From: Nitrososphaerales archaeon
GTDB taxonomy: Archaea > Thermoproteota > Nitrososphaeria > Nitrososphaerales > UBA213
DNA length: 64,000 nt
Assembly (NCBI GenBank): GCA_965197925.1
Contig: CBDAOC010000001.1
Location: 24,724-88,723, forward strand
Direction of reading: 5' to 3'
Shown piece by piece: positions 50,234-54,279 of this stretch (within the stretch, counting starts at the first letter, position 1; each line of letters begins with the position of its first letter). A program made the translations under genes and the position numbers. The notes under the pieces were generated by a model that saw nothing but the letters and a program-made list of their open reading frames with translations, was not told the DNA's origin and did no database searches.

Positions 50234-50878
50234 ACGAACTTCCTTGCTTTTCACCATTCATTCTATTTCATCAATGATTAAACCAAGTTTATTTATAACT
50301 ATAGTAGGGTGATTTGAATAATTCTGAATGGTTAGATTCAATGAAGCATCACAATTATACCTGTTGATATTATCCTTGCGGCAAGATTGGAAACTATAAC
50401 AATTTCATTTTCTATGTATCTTATCAATTGTATACGGCAGCTTTCAATTCATTTTATCTTCACTATCTAAAACTGGCTTATAACAAGGAATCATCAGCCT
50501 TCGAGCTTATCAAACGGGCGGTTATTTTCTCTACTTATAAATCCATTCTCACTTCTGTTCTTTTGCCCTGTATGGATAAGCATTGTGGAAATTTTATCTT
50601 AACTCAGATCATCTCTAATACTATTCTCGTTCTGTATTATTGATCATAATTCATTTTTCAACTTTGTTGAGTATCCAAGGATTCTCCAGTTTATTGATTG
50701 TGTATCCAAATTGATACCCATTTATTCACTGAGGCTCTTAATGATTAACAATTTGACACAGCTAGCAGGTGGAGTTGTAAAAAGGTGTTCCATTTGCCAA
50801 TTTGCAAGTAGAGTCCTAAATTTTGTATCCTTATTGAGCTAACAATGATTAATGATTTAATGATTTCTAGCAGAAGGA

Positions 50879-50885
50879 TTAAATA
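50879..50885 (+). promoter_or_regulatory. Putative TATA box of aEF-2
   Basis: TTAAATA about 30 nt upstream of ATG 50916, preceded by a purine-rich stretch. Confidence 0.45.
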
Positions 50886-50915
50886 AAGATACTCGACAGA
50901 GTTGTGCCAGATAGG

Positions 50916-53136
50916 ATGCCGCGTTACAAGTCAACTCAAGAAGCATTAAAGGTCATAGGCAATAAAGACCAAATTCGAATGGAGTGGGGTTGACTCCTTA
51001 CACCCGAATAATATTGGTACTATAGCCCATGTAGATCACGGAAAAACTACCATGAGCGATAGCTTATTGGCTGCCACTGGCATGATAAGTCCCTCCGTGG
51101 CTGGGCAGGCATTGGCATTAGATTTCATGGAATTAGAACAAACAAGACAGATGACTATCAATGCAGCTAACGTTACTTTGTATTACGAGGAGGATGGTAA
51201 GGCCTATGTTATGAATATGATCGATACACCAGGGCATATTGACTTTACCGGAAGGGTAACCAGAAGTTTAAGGGCCATCGATGGTGCCATAGTTGTCTGT
51301 GACTCTGTGGAAGGAGTTATGACCCAGACAGAAACCGTTACCAGACAGGCGCTTGAAGAGAGAGTAAAACCCGTTCTGTACATCAACAAGATAGATCGGT
51401 TGGTCAAGGAATTGAGGTTAACGCCTCCTAAGATGCAGGAATGGTTGGCGGGAATAATTGGTGATTTTAACAGACTGATCGACATTTATGCCGAACCTGA
51501 GCTGAAGGAGAAATGGAAGGTTAGTATACAGAATGATAGTGTAGCATTTGGTTCCGCTAAAGATAGGTGGGGTTTCAATGCTGGTATGGCAGCAAAAAGA
51601 GGAATTAACTTTAACACTATTTTTGACGCTTATACCTCGGGAGAACCCAAAGAATTAGGCAAAAAGGCTCCCTTACATGAAGCAGTGTTGAGTATGGTTG
51701 TTAAACATCTCCCCCCTCCACACGTTGCTCAGAAATACAGAATACCCAAAATATGGAAAGGTGATCTTACCTCTGATATTGGCAAGGCTCTTCTAGAGTG
51801 TGATGATAATGGTCCCGCTATAATGATGATCACTACCATGGTGGTTGATCCTCAGGCAGGGCCGGTAGCAGTGGGTAGATTGTTTTCAGGTACATTAAAG
51901 GATGGTAATGAAATTCATCTCATAGATTCAAAGAGAAAGGAAAGAATTCAATCCGTTAACTTGTTTATGGGTGCTACCAGAGAGATTGTTGGTTCACTTG
52001 GTGCTGGTAACATACCTGCATTGCTTGGATTAGAACATGCGAGAGCTGGAGAAACCATAGGTTCTACACAAAACATTTATCCATTTGAATCGATCAAGTA
52101 CGTTTCTGAAGCTGTCATCACAGTTGCTGTGGAACCAAAACATCCAAAGGATTTACCCAAACTAGTTGAAACATTGAGAAAGATGAGTATAGAGGATCCC
52201 AACTTAGTGGTGAAGATCAATGAAGAAACTGGCGAGACTCTAATGGCTGGTATGGGAGTATTACACTTGGAAATAGCTACCTCGTTACTAGAGCAAGCTG
52301 GCCTGGAGATTACTACTTCCCCACCGTTGATCAATTATAGAGAAACAGTAAGAGCAGCTGCAGGGCCAATAATGTCAAAGTCACCGAACAGGCATAACAA
52401 GTTGTTTGTTAAAGTGGAACCCTTGAGTGAAGACGTGATAGAGTTGATAAGAACTGGAAAGATAAACGAAAACATGGACAAGAAAGATATAGGCGCGGTT
52501 TTGCGGGAGAAGGGCTGGGAAACAGACGAAGCCAGAAGGGTAGTAGCTATAGAGAGCGGGAGTCTACTCGTTGATGCAACCAAGGGTGTTCAATACTTGC
52601 AGGAATCTATGGACTCGATAAAATCCGGTTTCACCGACATCATGCTCACTGGTCCGATGGCCCAAGAACATTGTAGAGGAATAAAGATTATTTTACATCA
52701 CTTCGTCCCACATGAAGATCCGGCGCATAGAACTCTTGCACAGCTTATGCCCGCAAGTAGAAGGGCTGTCATGGGCTCGATACTTGTAGCAGATCCGGTT
52801 TTGCTGGAGCCAGTACTTGGTATTGAAATAAAATGTCCTGCGGATATGATTGGAACAGTTGCTGGTATATTATCCGGGAAGCGTGGTAAGTTGATTAACG
52901 TTGATCAGAGAGGTATAATAGCAATTGTAACGGGTGAAGTACCAGCATCCGAAACTTTTGATTTGTCAGAGACTATGCGAGGAGGTACTGCTGGCAAAGC
53001 GATTTGGAATACTCACTTTAAGCTATGGCAAGCTGTGCCATCCTCGCTTCTTAAATCAATAATAACAGACATTAGGAAGAGGAAGGGTTTGAGCCCAGAG
53101 CCTCCAAGCCCTGATGAATTTATTGATAAAGAATAA
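50916..53136 (+). CDS. fusA: Translation elongation factor aEF-2, join(50916..50979,51011..53136)
   Basis: MPRYKSTQEALKVIGNKDQIR joined to NIGTIAHVDHGKTT; also DTPGH, NKID and diphthamide loop HEDPAHR. Confidence 0.96.
50980..51010 (+). other. Putative 31-nt bulge-helix-bulge intron in aEF-2 mRNA
   Basis: 4-bp helix UUCG/CGAA with 3-nt bulges AAU and UAA; removal restores the frame. Confidence 0.88.
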
Positions 53137-53188: not shown

Positions 53189-54279
53189 GAGACTTGGGCA
53201 TAATTCAATTATAATATTATTTTGAAATTATTACTATTAGCTTCCCAACATATACTTCAATGCCCTAAGAGGCCTTCCTGTCAAGTAGTTGTAGTACACC
53301 ATTACCTGATACAACAATACTGATAACAACACTATACTCCTTACCTTATCAAATCCTCTAACTGGCAATGGATCTATGGTAAATACATCCTTCATATGCT
53401 CTACCAATGGCTCAACGCTTATGCTCCTCCGAGAATATACATGCTGTCCAAATTCAGATTGATAGAACTGCAGCAATGCCAGTCTATTATTATCTGTAGT
53501 ATGCTTGTACCTTTCCAATGGGAATACTGGATGCCCTCTATACCTGCTGAAATCACATAACTTGTGATCATCATATCCTTCATCTCCTACAACATACTTT
53601 ACCATTCCTGTAGGCAATGAAGATGTTATGCTTTCATACATCTTGTTATCAGTAATGTTAGCTGTTGTGAAATCAGCTGATAATGGAACTATCAACGAAC
53701 TTGTGCTACATGCTAGATGTAGTTTGTATCCGAATATCCATCCCTTGGTTCTGCTGAATCCCCATCGAGCATCTGTATCTATACCGGAGCGTGGCACTTC
53801 GTTCTTCTTCATGCTAGATTTGTGCCATACATGTCCCTTTGCTTTCAACAATGAACTGTCAACGGATACTATGGCTGGGTCTACCAACCCATCTTTTATG
53901 AAGAGCATACCCATAACATCTATCCTTGATCTTATGTCAATTGATACGGCCTTGACCTTCTGTCGAATGTTCTTCTGTCTGGCAACCTATTAAGACCACA
54001 TGCCTTCATTACCTTCCTGTTGTATGGCATGTCTATCGAATAGTATTCATGCAAAGCATTGTTGCTTGGTATTCTTATCCATACTCTAACGATGAAGCAT
54101 CTCACCATAACTGTAGGAGAATAGTAGAATGGTCTACCTCTTTTCCTATTAGGTTTTGACCAAGGAATCACGTCAATCAAAAATAATATACGAAGAAGTA
54201 TGGAGTCTGAGCTAAACATATCAACAATAAAAACTAGAACCTGATCTTATCGTTTCGAACTAAATTACGCCCAAGCCTC
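53189..54279 (-). mobile_element. IS type A copy 5 (1091 bp)
   Basis: Same IRs; ORFs 53932-54219 and 53237-53914. Confidence 0.93.

Follow-up and report, generated by a model that had tools for sequence, protein, structure and literature searches.

The gene for the translation factor aEF-2 in a Nitrososphaerales archaeon is very probably a split gene, interrupted by a 31-nt bulge-helix-bulge (BHB) intron that would be spliced out by EndA and RtcB, with only the spliced mRNA encoding the full-length protein. The evidence comes from the anatomy of the gene, from RNA contigs in which the insert is missing, and from the conservation of the BHB geometry across the order.

An aEF-2 gene restored by removal of 31 nt

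All coordinates are positions within the window, the whole stretch of 64,000 nt that was analysed (assembly GCA_965197925.1, contig CBDAOC010000001.1). The host is a sponge-associated ammonia-oxidizing archaeon of the order Nitrososphaerales, with amoA present. The gene is laid out as follows:

50877..50890, + strand: promoter-like A/T-rich element (GGATTAAATAAAGA), ~26-39 nt upstream of the ATG
50916..50979, + strand: exon 1 of aEF-2, codons 1-21 (MPRYKSTQEALKVIGNKDQIR) and the first base of the Asn22 codon
50980..51010, + strand: intron of 31 nt, with TGA 50991-93 in the exon-1 frame; absent from the RNA contigs of runs X14 and X16, kept in runs X1 and X5
51011..53136, + strand: exon 2 of aEF-2, opening with the final two bases of the Asn22 codon and containing the P-loop (AHVDHGKTT), the remainder and the stop

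In the unspliced frame, the ATG at 50916 is followed by MPRYKSTQEALKVIGNKDQIR and then by the TGA at 50991-93. The insert shifts the frame, and NIGTIAHVDHGKTT is read in the +1 frame from 51010, with exon 2 starting just ahead of the P-loop. The ORF caller's start, ATG 51052, lies downstream of the P-loop, and public databases likewise hold exon-2-only aEF-2 proteins of 694/695 aa. That the called ORF lacks the P-loop, that the true start is at 50916 and that the reading stops at 50991 and resumes in another frame had all been proposed in the first-pass annotation, and every coordinate proved correct. Removal of 50980-51010, by cutting after the second base of each bulge, gives ..QIR-NIGTIAHVDHGKTT.. 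(QIR-NIGTIAH) in frame. The calculated product has 729 aa, and intron-less homologues have 726-733 aa. Intron-less relatives (L017, L025, L030, L032 and others) read unbroken through M-P-K/R-F/Y-K-..-QIRNFGVIAHVDHGKTT.

Exon 2 alone aligns to positions 21-720 of the aEF-2 profile TIGR00490 with 857.9 bits, above the cut-off of 738.45, and has no further breaks; the 20 missing profile positions correspond to exon 1, as judged by comparison with intron-less relatives. The 25-aa exon-1 peptide, too short a query, gave no match in NCBIfam at E up to 10. The aEF-2 gene is single-copy in this genome (98.7% complete), where the matches next in rank are other GTPases (E 6.5e-5 and 2.3e-4), and this removes the objection, raised in the first-pass annotation, that a second intact aEF-2 might exist while the interrupted copy decays. 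Upstream, the same GGATTAAATAAAGA motif, which we take to be a BRE/TATA element, is found equally far upstream in 8 relatives of the same family and also in loci L015 and L016 of f8. Its position 26-39 nt before the ATG suggests that the 5' leader of the aEF-2 mRNA is very short.

RNA evidence for splicing

The 31-nt insert is a real, spliced pre-mRNA intron. In two metatranscriptome runs (X14 and X16, two samples of one study), one contig each skips exactly 31 nt, joining 50978/79 to 51010/11. The flanking 49+152 nt and 42+184 nt have 0 mismatches to the window (201/201 and 226/226 bases). Because A50979 and A51010 are the same base, removal of 50979-51009 or of 50980-51010 yields an identical product. 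The skip is thus what the first-pass annotation had expected when it assigned exactly 50980-51010 to the intron and I-R-N-I-G to the joined codons, and its suggestion that RNA data be searched for the junction was borne out by the contigs of both runs. In runs X1 and X5, whose kind is not on record and which are presumed to be DNA, the whole 1001-nt stretch is present unspliced in 4-kb contigs with no joint. The RNA evidence takes the form of contigs, as opposed to raw reads, that were assembled from a single study at a low word depth (6-8x), and no ratio of spliced to unspliced RNA is obtainable from it.

The BHB structure at the insert

The exon and intron bases around the junction can form the following elements:

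50968..51018, + strand: whole bulge-helix-bulge motif, with outer helix, central helix, two bulges and inner hairpin
50968-72 and 51014-18, + strand: outer stem, ACCAA paired with UUGGU, present in the sequence
50974..50977, + strand: 5' strand of the central helix, UUCG, exonic, pairing with 51005-51008 (4 bp)
51005..51008, + strand: 3' strand of the central helix, CGAA, intronic, pairing with 50974-50977
50978..50980, + strand: 5' bulge AAU, predicted cut 50979/50980, RNA contig junction 50978/79
51009..51011, + strand: 3' bulge UAA, predicted cut 51010/51011, RNA contig junction 51010/11
50981..51004, + strand: inner hairpin, a 9-position stem (50981-89 with 50996-51004) with one A.A mismatch and a 6-nt loop, UUGACU

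As expected of a BHB intron, two 3-nt bulges lie on opposite strands around a 4-bp helix (though the minimum free energy, MFE, fold prefers 5 bp and 4 nt), flanking helices h and h' are found on both sides, and cuts after the second bulge base give a functional junction. Compensatory change occurs amid varying sequence and length, and the genome encodes a splicing endonuclease and an RtcB ligase. The MFE fold has -16.4 kcal/mol, with a modest z of -2.39 (4/200 shuffles are as good), and extends the central helix to 5 bp by pairing A50973 with U51009, leaving a 4-nt bulge. The strict 3-4-3 conformer, at -12.2 to -13.5 kcal/mol, is 3-4 kcal/mol less stable. A50973 is also able to pair with U51012, leaving A51013 bulged, in which case the outer helix consists of one pair, the bulged A and 5 pairs. 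The stems, bulges and inner hairpin listed in the first-pass annotation are all present at the positions it gave, and so is the 3-4-3 motif that it termed canonical; the term itself is slightly generous because of the bulged A in the outer helix and the differing MFE fold. It is the comparative and RNA data, rather than fold energy by itself, that argue against a chance motif.

Conservation across the order

Of 30 aEF-2 loci examined first, 22 have an insert at this position. When 151 sampled genomes of the order were scanned, the insert was found in 34, together with covariation. Another 38 genomes match the exon flanks only, which indicates that the insert is absent there, and 79 gave no match. 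All genomes of the same family (9/9) and of family f8 (11/11) carry the insert, and intron-less aEF-2 alleles exist in other families of the order. The nearest named relatives, Nitrosotenuis and Nitrososphaera, have loci without the insert, as named by a peptide-pattern search that was too general (80 loci kept, of which 7 are archaeal and the others bacterial EF-G). A quick IQ-TREE tree of EF-2 (49 rows, careful search unfinished) has an unresolved backbone on which the site-1 label takes anywhere from 1 to 6 changes, so that gain and loss of the intron at this site cannot be told apart.

Each of the 34 inserts, which range from 16 to 63 nt, has exactly one BHB solution (3-4-3), and this solution restores [IV]RN[FI]G. 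Their lengths are 3n in 12 cases, 3n+1 in 21 and 3n+2 in one. Since all twelve 3n inserts contain a stop in the exon-1 frame, translation through the inserts is impossible. Of the 34 genomes, 29 have UUCG/CGAA as the central helix and the other 5 have CAGG/CCUG, a difference that is compensatory at all four pairs. In an alignment of 63 related sequences (52 distinct), fitted to the model structure, 92.2% of cells pair vs 83.7% in shuffles, slid controls pair at 37-50%, and double-sided changes number 102 vs 31.2 in shuffles, with 0/500 shuffles reaching 102. Across the 52 distinct sequences, 97.1% of outer-helix cells and 85.2% of inner-helix cells pair. In the family alignment 7/9 pairs of the inner helix have changes on both sides, and two further covariation analyses agree with the main one.

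Splicing machinery and other candidate introns in the genome

The genome encodes two EndA paralogs, ORFs of 183 and 189 aa that each combine PF01974 and PF02778 (N- and C-terminal domains; 96.6 and 83.4 bits), and one RtcB (599.6 bits). The EndA loci lie at C19:216010 and C19:402879 and the RtcB locus at C20:600904. None of these genes is interrupted. ARAGORN predicts introns in 17/61 tRNAs. In the same genome cbf5 (TIGR00425, 393.4 bits) forms an uninterrupted, stop-free frame of 333 aa, so the cbf5 intron is absent.

A de novo scan of the genome for 3-4-3 motifs with flanking pairs was very noisy. Its 83,703 structural matches fell to 1,662 with an ORF-joining filter and to 145 with stricter helix rules, which, owing to the A.A mismatch, excluded even the aEF-2 intron. 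A search for the UUCG...CGAA core returned 27 loose matches, among which only the aEF-2 site is convincing.

Alternative explanations

It is conceivable that the 31-nt skip represents DNA or RNA of a co-occurring strain that lacks the insert, the copy in the window being left unspliced. DNA can be present in RNA libraries, and intron-less alleles are known from other families of the order. However, the RNA contigs are identical to the flanks in the window over 201/201 and 226/226 bases, and runs X1 and X5 (presumed DNA), with 100% matches, hold only the insert-bearing form and no joint. The insert is also carried by all 9 same-family and all 11 f8 genomes, and without splicing the gene would lack its P-loop, there being no second copy. 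We therefore regard a second strain as a very unlikely source of the skip. The P-loop-less protein that gene callers yield could also be mistaken for the product of a decaying pseudogene, or the insert for an assembly artefact, readings to which we give next to no credence. The gene is essential and single-copy, exon 2 is otherwise unbroken and reaches 857.9 bits along the full profile, the same stretch is found whole in 8 runs from 3 studies (unbroken in contigs of two), and the insert is conserved with compensatory changes.

Perhaps the insert leaves the RNA by another route, through a different endonuclease/ligase pair or a self-cleaving fold instead of EndA and RtcB. The MFE fold does differ from the strict BHB. 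Yet the RNA junction falls precisely where the BHB cutting rule places it, 34/34 inserts retain the 3-4-3 geometry despite their varying sequence and length, and EndA and RtcB are both encoded. A group I or II intron was rejected on grounds of size, 16-63 nt being too short for either. All this makes another route highly improbable. Ribosome bypass or a +1 shift (programmed recoding), without RNA splicing, has some appeal at first sight: exon 2 is read in the +1 frame relative to exon 1, whose own frame runs into a stop codon, an arrangement shared with many recoding sites. Such recoding is almost certainly not what happens, however, since the 31 nt are missing from the RNA contigs and read-through would add 10 unrelated residues to the first strand of the G domain. 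With 12/34 inserts being 3n with in-frame stops and one being 3n+2, a single +1 shift would also be unable to serve all of them; the mixture of 3n, 3n+1 and 3n+2 lengths and the in-frame stops of the 3n class led us to reject a programmed +1 frameshift site. An intein was rejected as well, as the insert contains TGA 50991, shifts the frame and is absent from RNA.

A model for aEF-2 expression

Returning to a BHB intron as the preferred explanation, we propose that aEF-2 would be transcribed as a single pre-mRNA in which the intron lies one codon before the first beta-strand and the P-loop of the GTPase domain. Exon bases (codons D-Q-I-R and N-I-G) and the intron would then fold into helix-bulge-helix-bulge-helix. 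A heteromeric EndA, made of the two paralogous subunits, would cut after the second base of each 3-nt bulge, and RtcB would join the exons, releasing the intron, probably as a circle. The full 729-aa aEF-2 would arise from the spliced mRNA only, and unspliced RNA would give a 25-aa peptide, or a P-loop-less protein if translation starts downstream. We infer the identity of the acting enzymes, EndA and RtcB, as well as the circular fate of the intron and any regulatory role that it might have.

A second insertion site

Within the order there are two insertion sites, 36 nt apart, one in the Asn codon before the first strand (site 1) and the other in the P-loop Lys codon (site 2). The site-2 introns and the CAGG-type site-1 introns start with the same bases (ACUG), share a stem end (CAGCC) and have similar exon surroundings (AUCAGGAA and AUCACGGAA), a resemblance such as relocation via reverse splicing or gene conversion might leave. 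A true intein is found in the aEF-2 P-loop of a relative from another family (G011). The proximity of the two sites, the shared intron ends and contexts, and the intein in the same loop hint that mobile BHB introns could use the P-loop end of aEF-2 as a landing zone. The intron might also gate the translocation factor by EndA/RtcB capacity, like HAC1/XBP1. We put this forward tentatively, as a scenario that is more probably wrong than right.

Significance and comparison with known systems

A literature search found no report of a BHB intron in aEF-2, in keeping with the first-pass annotation, whose reader knew of no EF-2 example. The aEF-2 gene would be the second protein gene with a tRNA-type intron, beside cbf5, which has been cited as the sole case for >20 years. 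Its carrier is an essential, highly expressed translation factor of mesophilic ammonia-oxidizing archaea, so EndA/RtcB splicing of mRNA would not be confined to hyperthermophilic Crenarchaeota, and expression of the translation machinery would depend on the tRNA-splicing machinery in intron-bearing lineages. P-loop-less aEF-2 entries (694/695 aa) are stored as normal proteins, which affects EF-2 phylogenies and marker sets. The natural variants (16-63 nt, two helix types, two sites) make a good system for studying BHB substrate rules and mobility.

In Crenarchaeota, a BHB intron in the pre-mRNA of cbf5 (pseudouridine synthase) was reportedly described by Watanabe in 2002 and by Yoshinari in 2006. 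Unlike that intron, the present one resides in aEF-2 and in Nitrososphaerales ammonia oxidizers, not in Sulfolobales/Desulfurococcales; the host's own cbf5 is uninterrupted, the order holds two insertion sites 36 nt apart, and the evidence for splicing is metatranscriptomic as opposed to RT-PCR or enzyme assay. The likenesses are nonetheless considerable. Like the cbf5 intron (Yokobori 2009, PMC2738675), the aEF-2 intron belongs to a type long known from Crenarchaeota: both introns are short, lack an ORF, lie in a protein gene, have a possibly relaxed BHB and occur in hosts with two-subunit EndA, and both are patchy across lineages and missed by gene callers. A term search of a 2025 EndA paper (PMC12397907) turned up only references to cbf5. 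According to Schwarz et al. 2020 (PMC7714728), cbf5 is the only other BHB mRNA intron reported besides HVO_1309 of Haloferax volcanii, whose mRNA acts as an EndA substrate in vivo as well as in vitro and carries a BHB element in its 5' UTR. HVO_1309 and aEF-2 are alike in having a BHB element within an mRNA, on which EndA would act in aEF-2 too, and unlike in that the HVO_1309 element sits in the untranslated leader, not inside the coding sequence.

The aEF-2 intron agrees with archaeal pre-tRNA and pre-rRNA BHB processing in its 3-nt bulge/4-bp helix/3-nt bulge arrangement and in the cuts after the second bulge base. In tRNA introns at position 37/38, the central helix is built from 5'-exon and intron bases, as it is in the aEF-2 insert. 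Unlike these precursors, the aEF-2 substrate is an mRNA, so its exon bases must satisfy both coding and pairing requirements, and the outcome of splicing would decide the production of an essential protein. In eukaryotes, the IRE1/RtcB splicing of HAC1/XBP1 mRNA is likewise spliceosome-free and frame-changing and relies on an endonuclease and RtcB-type ligation. Its endonuclease and RNA motif are different, however, and HAC1/XBP1 splicing is stress-regulated.

An interrupted aEF-2 gene

The aEF-2 gene of this Nitrososphaerales archaeon is divided between two reading frames of the forward strand. The frame opened by ATG 50916 reads MPRYKSTQEALKVIGNKDQIR, then MEWG, and ends at the stop TGA 50991-93, and the +1 frame from 51010 reads NIGTIAHVDHGKTTMSD... 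and is continuous with a 694-aa ORF. The first-pass annotation had proposed a bulge-helix-bulge (BHB) intron at this place; its sequence and coordinates match the window base for base, and it was right that the called ORF lacks the P-loop, as the mechanical ORF list puts the start at ATG 51052, past that loop. The translation of 51010-53133 is a bona fide aEF-2 (TIGR00490, 857.9 bits, cut-off 738.45), with a match that spans profile positions 21-720 only, so that about 20 N-terminal positions are absent from the exon-2 product. Since the match starts there and intron-less relatives read an unbroken N-terminus, MP(K/R)(F/Y)K..-QIRNFGVIAHVDHGKTT, exon 1 is the missing N-terminal block.

The layout of the insert and its flanks is that of an archaeal BHB site.

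Elements of the interrupted gene (forward strand)
50916-50979: exon 1
50968-72 and 51014-18: outer helix, ACCAA/UUGGU
50974-77 and 51005-08: central helix, UUCG/CGAA
50978-80 and 51009-11: bulges AAU and UAA, 3 nt on each strand after the central helix
50980-51010: intron
50981-51004: inner hairpin
51011-53136: exon 2

The outer helix may include a further A50973-U51012 pair, with A51013 bulged. The central helix is built from 5'-exon and intron bases, as it is in tRNA introns at position 37/38. As had been proposed, cuts between the second and third bases of the bulges remove 50980-51010 and do restore the reading frame: the Arg21 codon plus one A would be joined to AU-AUU-GGU, giving Asn-Ile-Gly. 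The region 50960-51026 has a predicted fold of -16.4 kcal/mol (z = -2.39; 4 of 200 shuffles were equally good), and this lowest predicted fold has a 5-bp central helix and a 4-nt bulge rather than the strict 3-4-3 conformer, which is predicted at -12.2 to -13.5 kcal/mol. Predicted fold energy taken alone would make a weak case, and the case rests on RNA and comparative data.

Splicing in RNA libraries

The stretch occurs, whole or in part, in 20 public sequencing runs that include two RNA libraries, and contigs of four runs (X1, X5, X14 and X16) were compared with window positions 50700-51700. X14 and X16 are metatranscriptomes of two samples from one study, labelled sponge metagenome. Each yields one contig that is identical to the window and skips exactly 31 nt, with flanks of 49+152 nt and 42+184 nt and 0 mismatches. 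The contig joint runs from 50978 to 51010, which is equivalent to 50979 to 51011 because one base fits either side, and it is the spliced junction that the first-pass annotation had predicted. The spliced form is present in RNA libraries; the contigs give no ratio, and both runs come from one study.

Conservation and covariation

Among the first aEF-2 loci fetched (own genome and 29 others of the order), 22 of 30 carry an insert at the same Asn22-codon site (site 1) and eight have none. A covariance model built from the 22 insert-bearing loci was run on 151 genomes of the order, a match longer than 44 nt (the exon flanks) being scored as insert present and one of exactly 44 nt as flanks only. 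The insert is present in 34 of the 151 genomes (families f1 9/9, own genome included; f8 11/11; f13 4/4; f18 2/2; f19 4/6; f2, f3, f7 and f10 1/1 each) and absent from 38 (f15 21, f14 12, f12 5); the 79 genomes with no model match are uninformative either way. Scored genomes of the order's three largest families (97, 112 and 112 in a 401-genome sample) lack it. Every insert (34/34) can be parsed in just one way that combines a central helix of 4 bp, two bulges of 3 nt and a restored [IV]RN[FI]G junction. Lengths are 31 nt in 14 genomes, 30 in seven, 37 in three and 45 in two, with 16, 28, 32, 33, 42, 43, 49 and 63 nt in one genome each. The shortest (L064/L072, genome G074) has an inner stem of merely 2-3 bp; the longest (L061, G058) has a hairpin loop full of short tandem TTAG/TTAA-like repeats that looks as if it had grown by slippage.

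Metagenome contigs were also scanned by exact pattern, giving 39 stretches with a model match in 34, and the enlarged covariation set comprised 63 sequences, 52 of them distinct. Paired cells amounted to 85.6% (75.8% in shuffles) in the first MAFFT alignment, 89.9% (79.9%) in 32 model-aligned sequences and 92.2% (83.7%) in the 63-sequence set, figures that carry the bias of the alignments toward the model and the kinship of the sequences. In the 63-sequence set, partners slid by 1-3 columns were 37-50% paired, and compensatory change occurs at 7 of 9 inner-helix pairs. Cells with two-sided changes number 102 in this set, against 31.2 in shuffles, and 0 of 500 shuffles reach the observed figure.

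Alternative explanations

A tRNA-type (BHB) pre-mRNA intron in the single aEF-2 gene is real and spliced in vivo; which enzymes splice it, what becomes of the excised intron and whether it has a regulatory meaning are matters of inference. Four other accounts are disfavoured because of the RNA, genomic, conservation and covariation data, and we consider it improbable that the truth lies with any of them. The RNA-library contigs, coming from a single study, might represent a co-occurring allele without the intron; X1 and X5, whose kind is not on record and which are presumed to be DNA, contain the full stretch, insert included, in 4-kb contigs with no joint. Recoding in place of splicing could be imagined for an insert that shifts the frame, but 12 of the 34 inserts are divisible by three and all of these have a stop in the exon-1 frame, and therefore read-through and a common frameshift are excluded.

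A pseudogene or an artefact is a further alternative, and the first-pass annotation had itself raised a second, intact aEF-2 as a possible refutation. The gene is single in the own genome (2.9 Mb, 20 contigs, completeness 98.7%, contamination 5.4%), where the next matches are other GTPases (E 6.5e-5 and 2.3e-4). Removal by a nuclease other than the splicing endonuclease EndA is disfavoured as well. The genome encodes two EndA paralogs (183 and 189 aa), each with an N-terminal and a catalytic-type domain; the Tyr..His..Lys pattern is kept in one, and the other has no His. We take the pair to be a catalytic and a structural subunit, presumably of the heterotetramer type with a broad substrate range. 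The RNA ligase RtcB is encoded by one uninterrupted gene, and ARAGORN predicts introns, some doubtful, in 17 of 61 tRNA genes.

A shifted motif, a second BHB site and an intein

In five genomes of f19 and f3 (loci L019, L021, L027, L153 and L154) the central helix is CAGG/CCUG instead of UUCG/CGAA, with all four pairs changed, and the entire BHB is offset from the codon frame by 1 nt, which puts the intron in phase 2, not phase 1, of the Asn codon and leaves the protein junction identical. A BHB insert of 28-30 nt within the P-loop Lys codon (site 2), 36 nt 3' of site 1, occurs in 5 of 151 genomes (genera g13 2/2 and g22 3/3; loci L067-L070 and L197-L201; relatives G021, G012, G028, G035 and G085), all without the site-1 insert. 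Here ACGG pairs with CCGU or CCGA in the central helix, and cutting as predicted restores H-G-K-T-T. In their first bases (ACUG), stem end (CAGCC) and exon context the site-2 introns seem to resemble the CAGG-type site-1 introns, an apparent likeness that hints at relocation. In another genome (G011; locus L071, contig C140) an intein lies in the aEF-2 P-loop, in an open frame of 1355 aa with the ending ..VHN immediately before TTMSDSLL; this loop is thus interrupted by an intron in some lineages and by an intein in the lineage of G011.

Gene neighbourhood and genome

A GGATTAAATAAAGA-like element at 50877-50890, about 26-39 nt 5' of the start codon and conserved in L005-L012, L015 and L016, is probably a BRE/TATA promoter; with the element so near, the aEF-2 mRNA would be nearly leaderless. 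Directly 3' of aEF-2 lies an IS-type transposase (53237-54219, - strand) split over two ORFs, one matching DDE_Tnp_1 (72.9 bits) and the other resembling an N-terminal DUF772 piece. By tblastn the own genome holds 70 near-full-length copies, 61 at >=90% identity, a large IS expansion. PMC6563490 describes the ef-2 3' end as a casposon target in Thaumarchaeota. The genome carries amoA; among relatives that have names, Nitrososphaerales, Nitrosotenuis and Nitrososphaera are the closest.

Comparison with known introns

Public protein collections contain many 'elongation factor EF-2' entries of 694/695 aa from Nitrososphaerales MAGs that start at the Met past the P-loop and are exon-2-only products (intron-less forms have 726-733 aa); these are products of an unrecognized intron, stored as normal proteins. 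A full-text search of literature outside the subscription journals turned up no aEF-2 gene described as carrying a BHB intron. Such an intron is unmentioned in the portions available of an aEF-2 evolution survey (PMC6143161) and of PMC6563490, and the accessible text of a 2026 review (PMC13149111) names no archaeal mRNA intron. In the excerpts of PMC12397907 (2025), 'protein-coding' and 'mRNA' are confined to the reference list, at three papers on cbf5, the crenarchaeal gene with a known BHB mRNA intron. The own genome's cbf5 shows no interruption. Cenarchaeum and Nitrosopumilus are listed without the cbf5 intron in PMC2738675 (2009), where introns in protein genes besides cbf5 are described as predictions only. 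PMC7714728 (2020), on a BHB element in the 5' UTR of Haloferax volcanii HVO_1309 mRNA, names the cbf5 intron as the sole further case then reported of a BHB intron in an mRNA.
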